Shown: positions 2,048 to 40,581 of the stretch, piece after piece
Position numbering within the stretch: the first letter of the stretch is position 1
How the letters are laid out: every line of letters starts with the position of its first letter
Origin: a virus
Length of the DNA: 64,000 bases
Virus record (IMG/VR): IMGVR_UViG_2902495512_000001
Strand: one strand, 5' to 3'
Notes under the pieces: generated by a model
Databases searched by the model: none
The model's input: the letters and a program-made list of their open reading frames with translations, nothing else
What the model was told of the DNA's origin: nothing
Position numbers and translations under genes: made by a program

Positions 2048-2073
2048 TATCAATTAATTTGGAGGAATTTCAA

Positions 2074-3237
2074 TTGAAAAAAAGATTAACCATCGGTGCA
2101 GTTATATTGGCATCACTAGCACTAGCTTCTTGTGGAAATAGCACTAACAAATCAAGCGAATTAAGTTCAAACTCAAGCAGCCTAGTCGCTGCTAAAAGAA
2201 AAAAAGCAACCTCTTTATCTGAAAGCAAAGTTAAAGCTAGTTCTGAAAGCTCATCCACTGCTAAAACGGCGACTAACAATAGCACTCAAGTTCTAACTAA
2301 GTTAGTTTCATATACAGACAAAGAGTCTGCCGGACCAACGCAAAACTATTATTGGGACAATGGCAAGGCCAAGCTTACTAACTTTGATAGTATGAAAGCT
2401 GGTAAATATGCTTTTTCAGCTGATAATCAAGGCCGCTCATCAGTAGCCAAAGCTATGCTTACCTATGCTGAGTACCAAGCTTCTAAAGGTAGTCGACAAG
2501 GAACGCCCTTAGATCCACCTTCATGGCCAAGCACCAACCCTAAAGTGGCTATTCATTATGGATTAACAGATCGTGTTTACCACGGTTTTCTTTACAATAG
2601 AAGCCATTCAATTGCAGATAGTCTTTTGGGCTCGGGATCATATACATCGGAATATAATTTTACAACCGGCACAAGGCCTCAAAATGTTGGTGCAAATCAA
2701 GAAGGTGGTATGCGCTATGCTGAAGAGTTGGTTGAAAACTACTGGAATACGCATTCTAACTCTAAGAATACTGTTTCCTACGAAACAACTCCACTCTATA
2801 AAGGAAATGAACGAATTCCTCGTGGTTCGCTGGTAGACATTAAATCTTCAGATAACCAGCTAAACAAAGAAGTGGTTGTAATTAACTCGGTTGAAGGCAT
2901 TAAAATTAATTACAATAATGGTAGCAATGATGCCAAGGCTTATCAATCTTCTAGTCGCTCTGAATCAAGCAAAAAATACGTTTCTGAAGCACCTAAAAAA
3001 CATTCAGAAACTAGTACGACTAATAGTTCCAGTTCTGTCTCAACAAAACAGAATTCCGCATACACTACTAATGGCTCATGGACAGTGGCCGCTTCCGGCA
3101 TGGTATTTGTATCCAATTCAAACAAATATTATAGCCAAGTGACTAATCCAGGTAATTATCAATATATTAGTCAAAGTTCTGCTCAAGCAGATGGTGCACA
3201 GCAAGCTAGTCGTGGAAACCAATACGCAAGACCATAA
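2074..3237 (+). CDS. Lipoprotein DNA/RNA non-specific endonuclease (streptodornase/mitogenic-factor-like)
   Basis: Lipobox LASC, Ser-rich linker, NRSHSIA catalytic-like motif, TGTRPQN...GGMRYAE; TTG start after GGAGG. Confidence 0.8.
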   Translation: MKKRLTIGAVILASLALASCGNSTNKSSELSSNSSSLVAAKRKKATSLSESKVKASSESSSTAKTATNNSTQVLTKLVSYTDKESAGPTQNYYWDNGKAKLTNFDSMKAGKYAFSADNQGRSSVAKAMLTYAEYQASKGSRQGTPLDPPSWPSTNPKVAIHYGLTDRVYHGFLYNRSHSIADSLLGSGSYTSEYNFTTGTRPQNVGANQEGGMRYAEELVENYWNTHSNSKNTVSYETTPLYKGNERIPRGSLVDIKSSDNQLNKEVVVINSVEGIKINYNNGSNDAKAYQSSSRSESSKKYVSEAPKKHSETSTTNSSSSVSTKQNSAYTTNGSWTVAASGMVFVSNSNKYYSQVTNPGNYQYISQSSAQADGAQQASRGNQYARP

Positions 3238-3244
3238 CAATTCC

Positions 3245-3263
3245 AAGCCCCTCACCGGGCTTT
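3245..3263 (+). terminator. Short hairpin before tRNA-like element 1
   Basis: AAGCCC-CTCACC-GGGCTT followed by T. Confidence 0.45.
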
Positions 3264-3266
3264 CAC

Positions 3267-3352
3267 GCGAGTGTAGTTCAACGGTAGAACGGTGCTCCTT
3301 TGAATTGCTAACTAGATACTAACAGATGCAGGTTCGACTCCTGCCGCTCGCT
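3267..3352 (+). ncRNA. tRNA-like element 1 (anticodon arm replaced)
   Basis: GCGAGTG/CGCTCGC acceptor, GTTC/GAAC D stem, GCAGG-TTCGACT-CCTGC T arm; 37-nt non-canonical middle. Confidence 0.85.
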
Positions 3353-3377
3353 TTAACCATAAAGAAGGCTTAATGCT

Positions 3378-3554
3378 ATGGATAGTGAAATTTCAAAATA
3401 CGAGCTAATTGCCACGATGAAGAAAGATATACAGACATTTATGGACTCAGAATCCATGTTATATCTAAAAAAAGATTCATATTCAACAGAAGAATATGAC
3501 CGTATGCTTACAGAAGTAAAAGATGATTTGAAAACACGGCTATTGCAAAAATAA
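3378..3554 (+). CDS. 58-aa hypothetical protein A (MDSEISKYELI...), paralog of 5459..5635
   Basis: AAAGAAGG RBS; 26/58 identical to its paralog by manual ungapped alignment. Confidence 0.85.
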   Translation: MDSEISKYELIATMKKDIQTFMDSESMLYLKKDSYSTEEYDRMLTEVKDDLKTRLLQK

Positions 3555-3596
3555 TTATGAACTCAGTAAATGATAGTCAGCCCTAGCTGACTTCAC

Positions 3597-3680
3597 GCGA
3601 GTGTAGTTCAACGGTAGAATGGTTCCTTTAATTCAAATATAGCCTACCTTCCAATGCAGGTTCGACTCCTGCCGCTCGCA
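3597..3680 (+). ncRNA. tRNA-like element 2
   Basis: Same acceptor and T arms as element 1; 35-nt middle; preceded by hairpin AGTCAG/CTGACT. Confidence 0.85.
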
Positions 3681-3719
3681 TAGAGATTCTTAACTCAATC
3701 AAACACAGGAGAATCACCA

Positions 3720-3845
3720 ATGTTCAATTCTTTAACTTATTTTTTAAAAAGCCTGTTCTCTATTAAGTGGAGCACTGAGCTATTATTTATGGCAATTATA
3801 TCAGCATTAATTGCATATTTTCTCTATAAAAAGCTTCATCACTAA
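3720..3845 (+). CDS. 41-aa small membrane protein (MFNSLTYFLKSLFSIKW...)
   Basis: AGGAG RBS; one hydrophobic segment followed by a KKLHH tail. Confidence 0.7.
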   Translation: MFNSLTYFLKSLFSIKWSTELLFMAIISALIAYFLYKKLHH

Positions 3846-3857
3846 TTGATTACAAAC

Positions 3858-3950
3858 GTGGGTGTAGTTCAACGGCAGAACGGCAACTTCTTATGGGATA
3901 CCCTTCCTTTATTTCTTATTGCCATGCGGGTTCAACTCCTGCCACTCACA
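3858..3950 (+). ncRNA. tRNA-like element 3
   Basis: GTGGGTG/CACTCAC acceptor, GTTC/GAAC D stem, GGCAA/TTGCC stem with enlarged loop, GCGGG-TTCAACT-CCTGC T arm. Confidence 0.85.
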
Positions 3951-4005
3951 TTGACCAGTCAGGATGTCATTAAAAGCTAGAATATATTTTCAGGAGGATA
4001 TTTAA

Positions 4006-4383
4006 ATGATTCAAGAATTCAAAGAATTTATCTCACGTGGTAATGTAATGGATTTAGCAGTCGGCGTTATTATTGGGGCTGCATTTACTGCTATCGTTAA
4101 ATCATTGGTTAATAATTTAATAAATCCACTAATAGGTGTTTTTTTAGGACAAATTGATTTCTCTAGCCTTGTTTTAAAAGTTGGCAATGCTACTTTTAAA
4201 TACGGTTCCTTTATTAATTCTGTCATTAATTTTTTGATTATTGCATTTGTGGTATTTTTACTAGTCAAAATGATTAATAAAATTATGCCTAAAAAAGAGG
4301 ATGTCGAAGCCGATCCTATTCCAACAGCCGAAGAAAAATATCTTTCAGAAATTGTATCATTATTAAAGCAACAGAAAAAATAA
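4006..4383 (+). CDS. mscL: Large-conductance mechanosensitive channel
   Basis: [24 protein letters not shown] and [14 protein letters not shown] signatures; C-terminal LSEIVSLL helix. Confidence 0.97.
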
Positions 4384-4400
4384 TTGCAGTAAGAAATCAG

Positions 4401-4769
4401 GTGCCATTCATGAAAAAATCAGAAGATTTATCTACTAAAGATTGGAAACAAGCACAGTCTGCCGTCTTCAAAGAGTACGAAGATTTTATTAAAAGAGTTC
4501 AAGAAAATGGTGTAGACTATGCTATTCAGCATGCAAGACGTTTAGTAAATTACCAAAAATTAGTTACCGAATGGCAACATAAAATAAATATTTTAATGGA
4601 CGATCTATCTAATAACCACGTCGCTTTAAGTGTTTTTAAAGACTTAGAAGAAGGAAACGAAAGTCATGTTTTGAGTAGAGCTTACGAGATTATGAAGAAG
4701 TGGCCAGAGTTCAACCCAGAACCATTAACCATTTGGCTAGAGCTCATCGAAGACTCAGATGATGAATAA
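4401..4769 (+). CDS. Hypothetical protein (122 aa)
   Basis: Open frame in the same operon; no recognised motif. Confidence 0.7.
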   Translation: MPFMKKSEDLSTKDWKQAQSAVFKEYEDFIKRVQENGVDYAIQHARRLVNYQKLVTEWQHKINILMDDLSNNHVALSVFKDLEEGNESHVLSRAYEIMKKWPEFNPEPLTIWLELIEDSDDE

Positions 4770-4778
4770 TAAAACTAA

Positions 4779-5081
4779 ATGTCAAAGGAAGAATTTCAAA
4801 TGAAGATTATCAACGTCGCATTGCATGTTAAACCAGAACTCAAAAAAGAATATGAAGATTTCATTCATGAACTTGTTATTAATTCAGCACAAGAAGCTGG
4901 TAATGAATTCTATGGACATTTCAAAAAGTTAGATAGTGATAATGATTACGAAATTATTGAACACTGGAAAGATCAAGAAGCCGTGGATTTCCATAATGAC
5001 ACCCCTCATTTCCAGAAATTTCTAGCACACGTCAGTGACTATCTAACTTCAGAACCAGAAATTACCAGAATGGATTATTAG
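4779..5081 (+). CDS. Antibiotic-biosynthesis-monooxygenase (ABM) / putative quinol monooxygenase
   Basis: E.GN..Y...Y.IIEHWKDQEAVDFHNDTPHF pattern. Confidence 0.85.
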   Translation: MSKEEFQMKIINVALHVKPELKKEYEDFIHELVINSAQEAGNEFYGHFKKLDSDNDYEIIEHWKDQEAVDFHNDTPHFQKFLAHVSDYLTSEPEITRMDY

Positions 5082-5135
5082 TTTTCTCGCTTTACAATTA
5101 AGTAAAAATAAATAGCACTTAATTGCAAAGCTTCC

Positions 5136-5209
5136 GGACCTTTAGCTCAGTTGGTTAGAGCAGACGGCTCATAACCGTCCGGTCGTTGGTTCGAGCCCAA
5201 CAAGGTCCA
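5136..5209 (+). tRNA. tRNA-Ile2/Met (CAT)
   Basis: Canonical cloverleaf GGACCTT...GACGG-CTCATAA-CCGTC...AAGGTCC-A, resembling the Firmicute lysidine tRNA-Ile2; no encoded CCA. Confidence 0.92.
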
Positions 5210-5215
5210 TTTCAC

Positions 5216-5301
5216 GCGAGCGTAGTTCAACGGTAGAACAGTACTCCTTTGAATTGCTAACTAGATACTTTCAGATGTAGGTTCGACTCCTGCCGCTCGC
5301 T
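5216..5301 (+). ncRNA. tRNA-like element 4
   Basis: GCGAGCG/CGCTCGC acceptor; loop CTCCTTTGAATTGCTAACTAGATACT identical to element 1. Confidence 0.85.
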
Positions 5302-5348
5302 TTGTAACAAATAACCCATACTACCGCTTACTTTAGTACGTACATCGC

Positions 5349-5435
5349 GTGGGCGTAATTCAATGGTAGAATAACGATTTCAGCCCTTCTCTCTCGTTTG
5401 AAATTGTTATGTAGGTTCAATCCCTGCCACCCACT
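5349..5435 (+). ncRNA. tRNA-like element 5
   Basis: GTGGGCG/CACCCAC acceptor; 10-bp stem AACGATTTCA/TGAAATTGTT with 16-nt pyrimidine loop; GTAGG-TTCAATC-CCTGC T arm. Confidence 0.85.
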
Positions 5436-5458
5436 TTTAAAAGAAAGAAGGTAAGATT

Positions 5459-5635
5459 ATGGATAAAGATATGTCGAAATATGAACTCATAGATAACATT
5501 ACTAATGACTTAACCTCTTTTATTAATCTGTATGCTTTCGTTTATCTTACAAAAGATAGCTACTCAAGGAAAGAATATGACCGCATAATCCAAGGAATGG
5601 AAAGAGATATGGTTGATCGTCTTAAGCAAAAATAA
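5459..5635 (+). CDS. 58-aa hypothetical protein B (MDKDMSKYELI...), paralog of 3378..3554
   Basis: AAAGAAGG RBS; conserved SKYELI, YL.KDSYS..EYDR and RL.QK. Confidence 0.85.
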   Translation: MDKDMSKYELIDNITNDLTSFINLYAFVYLTKDSYSRKEYDRIIQGMERDMVDRLKQK

Positions 5636-5692
5636 TTGTAGGTACATTCTAATTAACTGTTGAGCCGACCAAAACCCATTGTTGGCTCTTAT

Positions 5693-5763
5693 GCGAGTGT
5701 AGTTTAGTGGTAAAACGACAGCCTTCCAAGCTGTAGTCGCGGGTCCGATTCCCGTCACTCGCT
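5693..5763 (+). tRNA. tRNA-Gly (TCC), T-loop variant
   Basis: GCGAGTG/CACTCGC acceptor, ACAGC-CTTCCAA-GCTGT anticodon arm; T loop TCCGATT instead of TTCGATT. Confidence 0.88.
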
Positions 5764-5858
5764 TAATACCCCGTAATTGGGGTATATATTTTAAATTAAA
5801 GAGAACATACGTTTGGCAATATCAACCTATTGTTATTTCCAGTTAGGAGGAATAAAAC

Positions 5859-6980
5859 ATGTCAGTAACCAAACTTAATAATGGTAAATGGCAAGCCCGT
5901 GTCTCTTATAAAGATGATGACGGTAACTATAAGTCAGTTACTCATTTAGAAAAGCGCAAAACTGACGCCGCTGAGTGGGAAACTAAAACTAAAAATGCTC
6001 TGCTGGAAGGTGCTGACTTATCACGTAGCACTGAGAGTCTAAAGCATTATTTTCTTGATTGGATCAGAATTTACAAAACTGACGGCGTATCGCGTCATAC
6101 TCACGAGCTGTATATGGGCAACTGGCACCACATCTCCGCATATTTTAAGGATCAACCTATGAGCGCAATTAAACGGCCGGATTATCAGAAATTTCTGAAT
6201 GAATTTGGTCGCAGTCATGGAATTGCCACATCTCACAAACTTCATCAACAAGTACACACCGCAATCAAGGACGCTGTAGCCGATGGTATTCTAAAACGTG
6301 ACTTTGCTTACAAGGCACACGTCACTGGACGCCCTCCTAAGCCCGTAGAGGAAAAGTATTTGACGTTGTCCGATTATAAGAAACTGCGTAAATATCTCAT
6401 TAAAACAGCTGATTATGACCACATGACTATGCTGATGATGCTGTTTCAACTAGAAACTGGAACCAGGTTCGAGGAAGCTGCTGGCCTAACGTGGGATAAT
6501 TTGGATTTGAATAATGGAATAGTTCACATTAAACAGCAATGGGACGCCCGTAGACAGACTTTTCGTCCAACTAAGGGAAATGGACAGGCAGATGGAGATA
6601 TAACCATAGGACCCGCCTACTGTCGTTTTATGAGGAGCTATCGTAATGCGCAGAAAGATTATTTAGAATTACACGAAATGAAGAATCCTAAGAACCTCGT
6701 ATTTTGGTCCAAACTAGGAAAAATAGTGGGCAATGGGAATGCAAACGAAGAGCTAGGACGTATTTGTAACCGTCTAAAGATCAACAAAGTTACAACACAC
6801 GCCATGAGGCACACACACGCTTCAATTCTTATCTTAAATCATGAGTCCCTTCCCTATGTTCAACATCGCCTTCGACATCAAAAACTAGAAACGACCGTTA
6901 ACACCTACGTCCATCTTATTGAAGAAGAAAACGGCGTGTCAGATAAGAAGGCCACTGAGCTAATGGACGAAGGATTTTAG
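5859..6980 (+). CDS. int: Tyrosine-recombinase phage integrase
   Basis: N-terminal arm-binding domain; TGTRFEE, HAMRH and RLRHQKLETTVNTYVH motifs. Confidence 0.95.
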   Translation: MSVTKLNNGKWQARVSYKDDDGNYKSVTHLEKRKTDAAEWETKTKNALLEGADLSRSTESLKHYFLDWIRIYKTDGVSRHTHELYMGNWHHISAYFKDQPMSAIKRPDYQKFLNEFGRSHGIATSHKLHQQVHTAIKDAVADGILKRDFAYKAHVTGRPPKPVEEKYLTLSDYKKLRKYLIKTADYDHMTMLMMLFQLETGTRFEEAAGLTWDNLDLNNGIVHIKQQWDARRQTFRPTKGNGQADGDITIGPAYCRFMRSYRNAQKDYLELHEMKNPKNLVFWSKLGKIVGNGNANEELGRICNRLKINKVTTHAMRHTHASILILNHESLPYVQHRLRHQKLETTVNTYVHLIEEENGVSDKKATELMDEGF

Positions 6981-7390
6981 AAAATGATAATTTTGTGATT
7001 GCTGTATTCCTTGTGCCACAAGGGATTACAAAATCATTTGTTAATTTTTCTTCCAAAAACTGCTATATTTTGACTACTTTTTTCGTTTTTGGAAGAATCG
7101 TGGAAGAACATATCGTGTTTGAGTGGTTTTCGAGTGTAAGACAAAAGCACCAAAACGCCTTTATATCAGCGTTTTGGTGCTTTGCCGTTTCTCTATATTT
7201 GTCAACTTATCACCCGCACGGTAGTTATACCATCATAGGTAGCACGTAACAAACCATTGGTATTAAGACCTTTGCGAAAAAGAGAGATATTTTATTTACA
7301 AATCGTGGAAGAGCATAAATTAATTTAATATTGGTCCTTTTTTTGATGTTTTGCTTTCTCCACTATTATATACCAACTTATTATCTTAAA
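6981..7390. other. Candidate attP region
   Basis: Non-coding region after int; AATCGTGGAAGA repeated at ~7096 and ~7302 (arm-site-like); 15-bp inverted repeat 7144-7183. Confidence 0.55.
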
Positions 7391-7393
7391 CAC

Positions 7394-8513
7394 GACGAAT
7401 TTACAATTGAAGTGCAACAAGTAAGAAGAAAATAAAAAAGAACTCATAGCCTGAGTCCTGTAAAATGAAGTCACCACAACAATCATCTAAAGGAGATCCT
7501 AGGCTATGAGTCCGTACAACCATCTTACCTTAAAAGACCGAGAATGCATACTGTTGGGCGTCACTTTAAACGATACCTATCAAGTTATTGCGGAGAAAAT
7601 TGGGTGTTCTAAAGCCACCGTATCGCGCGAAATCAAGCGCAATGGTGGTCGTAAGGCATACTCGGCCGTCAAAGCCCAAGAGAACTATCAGGGACGGCGG
7701 CTAAAAAGCCGACGTCCTAGGCTTCTAACTGATTTGAAGTTACGGGATTTTGTCCTTCACTGCATTGTTCAACGTCAGTGGTCCCCGGAACAAATTTCCG
7801 GTCGTTTAGTCCACGAAAACAGTGAATGGCATATCAGTTATAACACCATTTATCGTGGGATTGAACGCGATAATTTAGGCATCAAACGTAAGAATCACGG
7901 GGCTCGTGGCTTTGCCCGTAAGCTTCGTCACCGCGGTAAAACCCGAAAGGTCAAGGGAACCATTAAGGAACGTCGAGGACGATTTAACGACGTCCCTTCC
8001 GTTCATGAACGACCTGTTTCATGTGAGAATCGAAGCTGGTTTGGCCATTGGGAAGGTGATACCGTTCGCGGTAAAACCGGGCGTTCGGCCCTGGTAACCT
8101 TGGTGGACCGCAAATCTCGGTATTTATTATCTCAGCGGGTTCCCAAAGTAAACGCCAAGAACGTCACACAAGCGATGATTGACCTCTTGCATACCGTGAC
8201 GCCCAAACGCGTTCGGACGCTTACGCCGGATCGTGGAACTGAATTCGCAGGATACCGCGAAGTTAGTCAAGAGCTAAGTATCCCAGTCTATTTCCCAGAT
8301 CCTCATGCGCCTCAGCAACGGGGAACCAATGAGAATACCAACGGACTTATCCGTGAGTATTTCCCCAAAGGAACCGACCTAGACCAACTGACTGATCAAG
8401 ATATCGACAAGTTTGTCAGAGATTTAAATCACCGACCACGTAAGGTCTTAGGCTGGAAGAGTCCATTTGAGGTTTTCTTCGGGACAAAGTTGCGCTTGAT
8501 TTGACAATTCGTC
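7394..8513 (+). mobile_element. IS30-family insertion sequence (copy type A)
   Basis: Imperfect terminal IRs GACGAATTTACAATTGAAGTGCAAC / GTTGCGCTTGATTTGACAATTCGTC; flanking AC/AC. Confidence 0.9.
7506..8504 (+). CDS. IS30-family transposase
   Basis: HTH, GHWEGDTV, TPDRGTEF, PQQRGTNENTNGLIREYFPK. Confidence 0.95.
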   Translation: MSPYNHLTLKDRECILLGVTLNDTYQVIAEKIGCSKATVSREIKRNGGRKAYSAVKAQENYQGRRLKSRRPRLLTDLKLRDFVLHCIVQRQWSPEQISGRLVHENSEWHISYNTIYRGIERDNLGIKRKNHGARGFARKLRHRGKTRKVKGTIKERRGRFNDVPSVHERPVSCENRSWFGHWEGDTVRGKTGRSALVTLVDRKSRYLLSQRVPKVNAKNVTQAMIDLLHTVTPKRVRTLTPDRGTEFAGYREVSQELSIPVYFPDPHAPQQRGTNENTNGLIREYFPKGTDLDQLTDQDIDKFVRDLNHRPRKVLGWKSPFEVFFGTKLRLI

Positions 8514-34090: not shown

Positions 34091-34162
34091 CACAGATAGC
34101 TGGATTTGAACCAACATAGACAGTTTTGGAGACCGCCATCTTGCCAATTAGATCATATCTGT
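34091..34162 (-). tRNA. tRNA-Trp (CCA)
   Basis: ACAGATA/TATCTGT acceptor, anticodon loop CTCCAAA, T loop TTCAAAT. Confidence 0.88.
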
Positions 34163-34231
34163 TTAATAGACGGGCCATCATATCAACTTAATCAAGGAGG
34201 CAACACAAACTGTACATCTGTGCCCGTCTAA

Positions 34232-34304
34232 CGTAGCCTGCTGGACTCGAACCAGCGGCAAGCTGATTAACAGTCAGGCGCTCTACCAACTGAGCTAAGG
34301 CCAC
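34232..34304 (-). tRNA. tRNA-Asn (GTT)
   Basis: GTGGCCT/AGGCTAC acceptor, loop CTGTTAA; C:C mismatch at the top of the anticodon stem. Confidence 0.88.
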
Positions 34305-34396
34305 AATAATAATCAATTAGAGCTATCAGAAAAACGTTTATTGGTCGCCCTAACCAATTATCGATAATACTAATTTACCACCAATTTATTGCTATG

Positions 34397-39253: not shown

Positions 39254-39916
39254 TCAAAAGGGTAGCCCATCAGGAACGTTATCAAATGGCTGGCCACCTT
39301 TGTACCCAGCACCAGTTTGGTTAGCGAAACTATTATTACCCTGTTGCTTAGGTACATTATTATTTGATTGATTAGGTGCTGACGTGCTGCCAAAACCGTT
39401 ATTATGATTTTGACCACCAAAACCACTACTGTTTCTTGGTGCAAATCCGCCACTCTGGGTGCTTAATCCATTAGGACGCTTAACACCATTTGGCTTACTG
39501 CCGTCTTGCATAAATGGTTTGTGACTTTTGACGCTTAAATAAGTTTTACCGTTTTGACCAGTTTCCCAATCGACCGTGACAGCTAGTTTATTGCCAACAG
39601 CTTGCGAGACAAATTGCTGAATCGAATCAAACGAAGTCCCATTAGCAGCGCCTAGGGCAACTGCAATCGTGTTAAACCGTTTAATCGAAAGGTTACCTTT
39701 CTCCTCTGTACTGGTATCCCACACTTCATTGTCGAATCGAATTCGACCACCCTTATATTTTCCATCGAGCACTTCATAATCAAATACTGCCATTGGGTTC
39801 CCGGCTTGTTGAGTTGTCGTGTATTGAGAACTGGGAGTAACCACCACATTGTATGTTCCGGCCTCCTCCACTGCTTGTCCGAGAATATTATTTGTATCTA
39901 CTGTAAATAGTGCCAT
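39254..39916 (-). CDS. DUF669 ssDNA-binding-like protein
   Basis: EAGTYNV.V...GGRIRFDN; Gly/Asn tail ending DGLPF. Confidence 0.8.
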   Translation of the reverse strand: MALFTVDTNNILGQAVEEAGTYNVVVTPSSQYTTTQQAGNPMAVFDYEVLDGKYKGGRIRFDNEVWDTSTEEKGNLSIKRFNTIAVALGAANGTSFDSIQQFVSQAVGNKLAVTVDWETGQNGKTYLSVKSHKPFMQDGSKPNGVKRPNGLSTQSGGFAPRNSSGFGGQNHNNGFGSTSAPNQSNNNVPKQQGNNSFANQTGAGYKGGQPFDNVPDGLPF

Positions 39917-39918
39917 TT

Positions 39919-40581
39919 TTATTTCTCTCCTTTTTCTGACTGAATTAGCTCATTAGCTTTAATCAATTTGCGATTATCTAATCGGTTTTTAGCGTGATTT
40001 CCTTTTTCTGGATCCAAGTCAATCATTCGTTCACCCGCTGCCAAGTAAATACGGCCTACTAGGTCAAACATCGAAGTAAATGCGTTAAACGTTTTTTCAT
40101 TCATATCAGCTTGAAAGCGACCCTCACCACTAATTCCCGATGATCCGTTATCAAGTTGATGAGCAGTTGCATAAATCGTTTTGCCACTCTCTTTTAAAAT
40201 GGTTCCCAAATCACGAAACCATAATTGCAATTTTTGGTAATTCTGGCGATTGTCCTTAGCTGCATTGTCGATATTCTCAAGTACCAAGTTTTGTAGCGCC
40301 GTTACATTATCCAAAACGATCACTTGATATTTAGCATTTTGAATAGCACGAATAATGCACTCTTCCACCATTGCTTGAATATTCGGAGCATCATTATGTT
40401 CAAAGATCACTACGTCTACATCCTTATCGCCAATCAAAACATTGCTAGACATATCAAAGCTAAAAACGAATTTATGACCTTTTAGTTGCTTTAGCAGGCT
40501 AGTTTTACCAGTACCGCCATCCCCGTAGATAAAGTACATGTTGGGTATCTCTGGAATATTCCCATCCTCATAAAACTTCAT
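39919..40581 (-). CDS. Sak4-like AAA ATPase / recombinase
   Basis: YGDGGTGKT, IVLDNV, AKNRL. Confidence 0.85.
   Translation of the reverse strand: MKFYEDGNIPEIPNMYFIYGDGGTGKTSLLKQLKGHKFVFSFDMSSNVLIGDKDVDVVIFEHNDAPNIQAMVEECIIRAIQNAKYQVIVLDNVTALQNLVLENIDNAAKDNRQNYQKLQLWFRDLGTILKESGKTIYATAHQLDNGSSGISGEGRFQADMNEKTFNAFTSMFDLVGRIYLAAGERMIDLDPEKGNHAKNRLDNRKLIKANELIQSEKGEK

Follow-up and report, generated by a model that had tools for sequence, protein, structure and literature searches.

The window analysed here is the 64,000-nucleotide (nt) stretch of the virus record IMGVR_UViG_2902495512_000001 (IMG/VR), and it carries, at positions 3245-5785 of the + strand, an array of small open reading frames (ORFs), five tRNA-like elements (E1 to E5) and two true tRNAs. 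All five elements and both tRNAs are co-oriented with the ORFs and are located between a cI-type repressor operon and the gene for a tyrosine integrase (int). We regard this array as probably a modular lysogenic-conversion operon with junctions derived from tRNA-Gly, which would serve at the RNA level as borders for cutting and at the DNA level as homology for the exchange of gene cassettes. The elements belong to a family of at least 279 copies in related prophages, with a conserved cloverleaf scaffold, exchangeable central modules and a conserved layout relative to the neighbouring cistrons.

tRNA-like elements and true tRNAs of the array

The RNA units of the array, with their scores against the Rfam tRNA model, are as follows.

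3267-3352, + strand: element E1, module type A (47.7 bits; alignment to tRNA-Gly)
3597-3680, + strand: element E2, module type B (44.5 bits)
3858-3950, + strand: element E3, module type D (39.8 bits; without hairpin and without TTCAC)
5136-5209, + strand: true tRNA with anticodon CAT (Met or Ile2 type), referred to as tRNA-Met (ARAGORN; 69.5 bits)
5216-5301, + strand: element E4, module type A (46.3 bits; 94% identical to E1; repeat family)
5349-5435, + strand: element E5, module type C (38.6 bits; long stem with pyrimidine-rich loop)
5693-5763, + strand: true tRNA-Gly(TCC) (72 bits; alignment with the elements)

With the Rfam tRNA model (RF00005; gathering score 29), the five elements scored 38.6-47.7 bits versus 69-72 bits for the true tRNAs; at its gathering threshold, no other curated Rfam model (tmRNA, YrlA/Y-RNA-like and further tRNA mimics) matched anywhere in the window. 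In their acceptor, D and T arms, the elements are 70-80% identical to the phage's own tRNA-Gly, and all three arms are kept, the acceptor stem at 7 bp and the D arm with its GG loop; in the alignment, 35-44 nt stand in place of the 17-nt anticodon arm of tRNA-Gly. For E3, the minimum-free-energy fold is a cloverleaf with a 5-bp stem and a 31-nt loop at the anticodon position, and the predicted fold of E5 places a pyrimidine run in the loop of a 10-bp stem.

The elements thus share the arms and the above-threshold score with canonical tRNA-Gly(UCC) of RF00005, but they differ from it in that the 5-bp anticodon stem with 7-nt loop is replaced by unrelated modules, and in the discriminator, which is mostly A or G and not U (T in 14 of 104 distinct trailers among the related copies described below). 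Glycine identity in bacteria requires U73 and C35-C36. ARAGORN assigned inconsistent anticodons to the elements (Lys, Leu, Trp, Ile or undetermined) and missed 120 of 274 copies; in public records, they are either unannotated or mis-called as tRNA-Lys, tRNA-Leu or tRNA-Trp. Judged by these features, the elements appear to be tRNA-Gly-derived units that are unable to decode, and tRNA-Gly(TCC) is likely the ancestor of their scaffold.

The CAT tRNA at 5136-5209 may be of the Ile2 type. The region 5136-5240, comprising this tRNA and a Gly-type 5' half, shows approximately 75% identity to the tRNA-Met (or Ile2)/tRNA-Gly pair of large T4-like phages of Enterobacteriaceae. Further, the tRNA-Met/element region has matches of 86-93% identity in INPHARED to OP650937.1 (Hujiaoplasma phage zrk29-2) and to OR847252.1 and similar records (Listeria phage LM 4-11-1); OP650937.1 additionally matches a segment of the structural region, and the stated hosts of OP650937.1 and of the OR847252.1-type records look doubtful.

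The element family in related prophages

The family was searched in IMG/VR with a pattern of the D and T arms separated by a long gap, which returned more than 120 stretches; relaxed matching gave at least 279 copies at about 120 viral or prophage loci. In a scan of one genome per species, the elements were confined to Lactobacillaceae, i.e. to Lactiplantibacillus, Lentilactobacillus, Secundilactobacillus and one Pediococcus plasmid. At all loci with a detectable integrase gene, the elements (183 of 183) lie on the strand of int, 144-5481 nt upstream of it. A true tRNA-Gly(TCC) is part of the array at 47 related loci, and tRNA-Met(CAT) at 26.

The central modules of these copies fall into at least 18 unrelated types of 33-49 nt, each conserved over many prophages, on few scaffolds, the commonest of which bears 11 module types. 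In 44 distinct copies, the 16 scaffold base pairs were found paired in 97.6% of 704 cells; five of the pairs have changed on both sides, and the observed covariation score was reached by none of 500 shuffles. The elements hence combine the 7-bp acceptor stem, D arm and T arm of a cloverleaf with a score above the model threshold.

A search of plasmids yielded four matches and added nothing. The 11-kb plasmid NZ_CP178377.1 of Pediococcus siamensis (locus L131) contains one copy of the pattern at 2593-2665, with no obvious prophage around it.

Leaders, hairpins, trailers and spacing

The hairpins of the array are listed below.

3245-3262, + strand: GC-rich hairpin, ends 4 nt before E1; its final T is the first T of TTCAC
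3575-3592, + strand: hairpin before E2, followed by TTCAC (3592-3596); leader cluster at -11.4 kcal/mol
5089-5131, + strand: 15-bp hairpin (arms 5089-5103 and 5117-5131, 93% complementary), ends 4 nt before tRNA-Met
5662-5688, + strand: hairpin before tRNA-Gly, with one G-T pair, ends 4 nt upstream (-11.5 kcal/mol, z -3.4)
5766-5785, + strand: terminator-like hairpin (terminator scan), between tRNA-Gly and int

An initial annotation of the sequence had pointed out a common leader TTCAC at elements 1, 2 and 4 and short hairpins before E1, E2 and tRNA-Gly, and both are indeed present; the hairpin before tRNA-Met had gone unnoticed. TTCAC is found at 3262-3266, 3592-3596 and 5211-5215, immediately 5' of E1, E2 and E4, and at E4 it doubles as the trailer of tRNA-Met. 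Of the five RNA units of the window that follow an ORF, four (E1, E2, tRNA-Met and tRNA-Gly) have a hairpin 4-5 nt upstream; the fifth, E3, starts 12 nt past a stop codon and has none, while E4 and E5 follow another RNA unit. Neither hairpin nor TTCAC is present at E3 or E5.

Across the family (114 distinct leaders), position -3 is C in 90 leaders, position -2 is A in 103, and position -1 is a pyrimidine (T or C) in every one; TTCAC accounts for 45 of the 114 and AACAT, the second common leader, for 31. A hairpin of -8 kcal/mol or lower was predicted for 71% of these leaders versus 10% of 40-mers drawn at random from these loci. The hairpin sequences fall into at least nine unrelated kinds, all of which end 1-6 nt before the element; hairpins of the E1 family recur in numerous relatives, at -10 to -17 kcal/mol. 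The terminator scan called no leader hairpin as an intrinsic terminator; U tracts are absent, and TTCAC, AACAT or a similar sequence follows instead. The recurrence of the architecture in at least 279 copies at about 120 viral loci, together with this frequency of hairpins, places it beyond chance.

On the other side of the elements, 104 distinct trailers were compared: all have T at position 74 (after the discriminator), 88 have T at position 75, and none has CCA after the discriminator. Hairpins are absent from the trailers (median -2.9 kcal/mol), which are predicted to be an unstructured ribosome-binding region. An element begins a median of 33 nt after the preceding stop codon, and the following start codon lies a median of 37 nt downstream of the element; the layout is thus fixed: stop codon, about 33 nt with a GC hairpin, a leader of 4-5 nt, the element, an open ribosome-binding region of about 37 nt, and start codon.

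Cassette exchange

The elements occur in 54 different orders among 113 loci, and 102 distinct combinations of upstream flank, module type and downstream flank were counted; in the four-gamete test, 49 quartets were incompatible for leader versus module and 106 for module versus trailer. Breakpoints, defined as the points where identity of at least 90% between the window and its relatives ends, pile up at 3592/3597 (24 cases), 5210-5216 (25 cases) and 5764-5770 (24 cases), and also at 3978-3981; others lie within the elements at junctions of scaffold and module (3275, 3292, 5239 and 3929), and few are located in cargo genes. Within elements, the crossover positions are scattered (+9, +24, +26 and +72, plus the edges).

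Two related loci illustrate these differences. At locus L008, the nuclease gene, hairpin and TTCAC run into a chimera made of the first bases of E1 and the remainder of E3, with the crossover within 14 shared bases in the D-arm region of the 5' scaffold; compared with the window, two cassettes are gone, and the chimera has a mismatched acceptor pair. At locus L117, the true tRNA-Gly directly follows tRNA-Met, where the window has E4, E5 and one ORF in between.

The elements thus mark the places where gene content differs from one related phage to the next, with crossovers inside the elements. The proposal of the initial annotation that the element ends provide homology for cassette exchange is supported by the reassortment of flanks and modules, by the breakpoints at element edges, by the chimera at L008 and by the junction at L117; the comparison of int-upstream regions in relatives, which it had suggested as a check, located breakpoints inside the elements. 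The phage encodes an AAA_24 (Sak4-type) protein, which we take to be a candidate recombinase and, with the adjoining DUF669 protein, likely part of a recombination pair; since phage recombinases of the Sak4 type accept homology that is short or diverged, exchange over 14-35 nt is plausible.

Proposed RNA processing

For the proposed mechanism, the operon would be transcribed in the lysogen, and each element would fold like a pre-tRNA. A cut by RNase P at the 5' end of the element would leave the upstream cistron with a hairpin plus 4-5 nt at its end, resistant to 3'-exonucleases, and a cut by RNase Z after the discriminator base would leave the downstream cistron with a short, open 5' untranslated region; both cuts together would free a tRNA-shaped RNA of 85-95 nt. 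At the DNA level, the near-constant halves of the scaffold (about 24 nt each) would offer stretches of portable homology through which co-resident phages and prophages could swap, lose or gain cassettes, probably with the aid of the phage's Sak4-type recombinase.

The helix of acceptor and T arm and the elbow of D and T arms are the parts of a tRNA that are used by RNase P, RNase Z and the CCA-adding enzyme. The parts retained in the elements are those that RNase P and RNase Z recognize, and the contexts of both cleavage sites are conserved; with intact acceptor and T arms and no CCA or C after the discriminator, the context is permissive for both enzymes. As in tRNA punctuation, the tRNA-like units are placed immediately between successive cistrons, in the coding orientation. 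Cleavage by RNase Z takes place right behind the discriminator, is inhibited where cytidines or CCA follow, and needs or prefers a 5' end that is already mature (PMC7479834); the constant T74 is not claimed as a positive preference of RNase Z for U at position 74. The sequence features are consistent with punctuation by RNase P and RNase Z, and cutting at both borders of the element fits the asymmetry of the flanks, with a protective hairpin upstream and an open ribosome-binding region downstream.

Several observations weigh against this interpretation of the array. E3, E5 and several leader families are without a hairpin. Acceptor pairs are mismatched in some recombinant copies (in 4 of 44 for pair 2-71 and likewise for pair 6-67), and tight structural selection does not extend to all copies; because the scaffolds are so near-alike, their conservation could in part reflect gene conversion or recent spread. 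Pure punctuation leaves the G-poor modules with their long pyrimidine runs unexplained, and the processing step is one that we infer. The three-gene MscL block of the window has no internal elements and some breakpoints lie outside elements (4369, 4374 and 4800), so the elements are neither required for every cistron nor the sole points of exchange; moreover, since unrelated cassettes have no sequence in common other than the elements, some clustering of BLAST end points there is to be expected. Finally, the terminator-like hairpin after tRNA-Gly speaks against one transcript that reaches int. Breakpoints are found at 5764-5799, and relatives (L084, L095, L116 and others) carry 1.4-3 kb of additional sequence, presumably further cargo, between tRNA-Gly and int; given this hairpin and the putative extra cargo at the same place, the single cI-to-int transcript that the initial annotation had assumed is doubtful.

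Alternative explanations

The central modules are not random filler, and they may have a function of their own. The elements might be mainly genes for trans- or cis-acting small RNAs, whose tRNA scaffold would give stability and precise ends and whose exchangeable pyrimidine-rich module would pair with purine-rich ribosome-binding sites on mRNAs of the phage or the host; punctuation and recombination would then be by-products. This explanation is compatible with punctuation and exchange, and we consider it unlikely. It would account for 18 discrete module types each conserved over many prophages, for a content of 11% G in the modules, for longest pyrimidine runs that sum to 147 versus 108 +/- 7 in shuffled modules (reached by 0 of 2000), for matches to the 3' tail of 16S rRNA that sum to 91 versus 82 +/- 3.8 (reached by 34 of 2000 shuffles), and for the position of the pyrimidine run of E5 in the loop of a 10-bp stem. 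However, the modules reassort freely with both flanks, so that no fixed cis partner is kept, the excess of anti-Shine-Dalgarno matches is modest, and the richness in C and U may partly derive from the anticodon loop region of tRNA-Gly. We only tentatively suggest that a unit of about 90 nt might fulfil three tasks at once, i.e. insulation of accessory mRNAs through RNase P and RNase Z, a homology arm that is independent of the integrase, and a scaffold for a small RNA that acts on ribosome-binding sites. That the elements are functionless relics, i.e. decayed duplicates of tRNA-Gly kept alike by recombination or recent spread and acting as passive repeats for rearrangement, is distinctly unlikely. 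The narrow range within Lactobacillaceae only, the near-identical scaffolds and the chimeric copies with mismatched acceptor pairs would fit such an origin, but decay should strike all arms, whereas only the anticodon arm has been replaced (in at least 18 ways) and the other 16 pairs are 97.6% paired, with compensatory changes; constraint is visible also outside the repeat (T74 in all 104 trailers, leaders that end in C-A-pyrimidine, and the independent hairpin families), and 183 of 183 elements have the strand of int and a position upstream of it.

Two further explanations concern the flanks and the neighbouring integrase. If each cassette were its own transcription unit, the hairpin would be the terminator of the upstream cistron, and TTCAC with a TAGAAT-like sequence of the D arm would be the promoter of the downstream cistron; the leader and D arm of E2 do match such a promoter (TTCACG, 17-nt spacer and TAGAAT at 3592-3620), but promoter-like matches are not above shuffles (19 found versus 22 expected), most elements read TAGAAC, without the final T of the -10 box, and 31 of 114 leaders read AACAT. 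Since, in addition, the hairpins have no U tracts and are not called as terminators, and the covariation in the acceptor stem between the two element ends would be left unexplained, such promoter-plus-terminator units are very unlikely. Like integron cassettes, the array has co-oriented, mostly promoterless small ORFs, a repeated structured element, a tyrosine recombinase gene nearby, and an order and content of cassettes that vary between relatives, and the elements could on this basis be integron-like sites at which the adjacent tyrosine integrase captures cassettes. Unlike integrons, the array is without an IntI-type integrase, attI and attC, its elements are tRNA-like, and the same elements accompany at least four integrase lineages, several of them unrelated phage integrases; the real phage attachment site (attP), at 7210-7221, matches another tRNA, Glu(CTC), of the host, and the crossovers are spread over the shared sequence with no single fixed site. 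The elements were therefore rejected as integrase sites, a role that we find hardly credible.

Cargo genes

The ORFs carried between the RNA units are as follows.

3378-3554, + strand: 58-amino-acid (aa) cargo protein, family p0 (phrog_15564, E 1e-19), paralogue of 5459-5635
3720-3845, + strand: 41-aa hydrophobic peptide, family p2 (ORF list)
4006-4383, + strand: MscL, full-length mechanosensitive channel gene (Pfam MscL, E 3e-43)
4401-4769, + strand: unknown 122-aa protein, middle gene of the three-gene cassette 4006-5081
4779-5081, + strand: ABM monooxygenase-like protein (Pfam ABM, E 2e-13)
5459-5635, + strand: second 58-aa cargo protein (phrog_15564, E 7e-37)

The view that almost every cargo ORF is bracketed by tRNA or tRNA-like units holds for the single ORFs at 3378-3554, 3720-3845 and 5459-5635, each of which is bracketed, but the genes at 4006-5081 are bracketed only as a block. 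Across the related arrays, the cargo comprises the 58-aa family, hydrophobic peptides of 39-79 aa, lipoproteins, membrane proteins, MscL and ABM-like proteins, all typical of the accessory genes of lysogeny modules. The commonest cargo family is p0 (61 copies), and the MscL family (p10) is found in at least eight related arrays. Some cargo families and module types keep company in the relatives: module type B stands upstream of p2 in 23 of 29 copies, type D stands downstream of it in 27 of 27 recorded, and type C is always located after another element and before a p0 ORF (31 of 31).

Genome context, integrase and attachment site

Positions 1-22036 of the window are identical to 41965-64000 (0 mismatches), and the window hence represents a circular genome of 41,964 bp (40% G+C content) read about 1.5 times; any feature below 22036 is present twice in the window through this wrap-around of the circle. 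Among cultured phages, no close relative over 24 kb was found, and at most short matches to the Lactobacillus phages Sha1, H1-Guo and phig1e; on the basis of these short matches and of the species that bear the elements, the phage is placed among the temperate phages of Lactiplantibacillus. The gene order of phig1e is alike (Cpg repressor, cargo, tRNA-Gly region, xis and int), and the order in Sha1 is likewise repressor, cargo and int. The genes and sites relevant to the array are listed below.

1203-1622, + strand: cI-type HTH repressor (Pfam HTH_3, E 8.8e-17), first gene of the co-oriented lysogeny operon
1634-2047, + strand: M78/IrrE-type metallopeptidase (Pfam Peptidase_M78, E 7.6e-12)
2059-3237, + strand: DNA/RNA non-specific endonuclease with lipoprotein-like N-terminus (Pfam Endonuclea_NS_2; phrog_5170), last gene before the array
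3245-5785, + strand: array of elements, tRNAs and cargo ORFs, between endonuclease and int
5859-6980, + strand: tyrosine integrase, int (Pfam Phage_integrase, E 4e-22)
7210-7221 (about), - strand: attP core, downstream of int, corresponds to the 3' end of the tRNA-Glu(CTC) of the host; border between prophage and host in relatives
39254-39916, - strand: DUF669 protein, adjoins the AAA_24 gene, early region (Pfam DUF669, E 9e-51)
39919-40581, - strand: AAA_24 (Sak4-type) protein (Pfam AAA_24, E 2e-40)

Related prophages resemble the window up to 7221, and beyond this point lies the body of a tRNA-Glu(CTC) of the host, encoded on the other strand; ARAGORN located tRNA-Glu at 11028-11100 of L116 and at 8452-8524 of L117. 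As attP is downstream of int, the repressor, the array and int would stay one contiguous, co-oriented block in the lysogen. The integrases of the at least four lineages that accompany the elements are 23-36%, 72% or 97-99% identical to that of the window.

Just past attP and before minus-strand cargo, an ORF for a transposase of 332 aa is predicted (7506-8504, + strand; phrog_4646, E 4e-98), which is possibly part of an insertion sequence. A second tRNA cluster, with tRNA-Trp and tRNA-Asn (34091-34305, - strand), is located far from the array.

Relation to known systems and significance

The array appears, by analogy, to relate to known kinds of arrangements, i.e. to tRNA punctuation, to co-transcripts of mRNA and tRNA, and to tRNA scaffolds. 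In mitochondrial tRNA punctuation, and with the t-elements of plant mitochondria, tRNAs or tRNA-like structures reportedly abut the cistrons and are thought to define mRNA ends via RNase P and RNase Z. The t-elements are, like the phage elements, unable to decode; the mitochondrial systems differ in that they are organellar and have no rule of an upstream protective hairpin, no exchangeable modules and no shuffling of cassettes. A tRNA-like body with signals for precise excision is also said to be used in the mascRNA of MALAT1, in engineered tRNA scaffolds and in polycistronic tRNA-guide arrays. The engineered scaffolds carry, like the phage elements, an insert in place of the anticodon arm; these examples are eukaryotic or man-made, whereas the phage elements are a natural family in bacterial viruses with at least 18 inserts. 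In bacteria, RNase P separates the mRNA from the following tRNA in secG-leuU of Escherichia coli (PMC2241853), and polycistronic operons of mRNA and tRNA are separated by RNase P (PMC7049720). The array is similar to such co-transcripts in that a tRNA-shaped unit directly follows a protein gene, where a cut by RNase P would set the 3' end of the mRNA; it differs in that the co-transcripts contain single true tRNAs, while the array contains repeated, non-decoding elements among small phage ORFs, which are also points of exchange and for which processing is predicted. Literature searches turned up no earlier account of elements like these, nor of phages that use tRNA punctuation.

If the processing holds true, the array would be a counterpart, in a bacterial virus, of mitochondrial tRNA punctuation, and it would provide a natural precedent for engineered tRNA scaffolds and for multigene arrays spaced by tRNAs. 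Independent of processing, the comparative result pinpoints a concrete sequence device by which genes for lysogenic conversion and superinfection exclusion are shuffled among the prophages of a food and probiotic species, with small membrane peptides, lipoproteins, MscL and a nuclease among the shuffled cargo. Recognition of the elements would improve the annotation of tRNAs and prophages.

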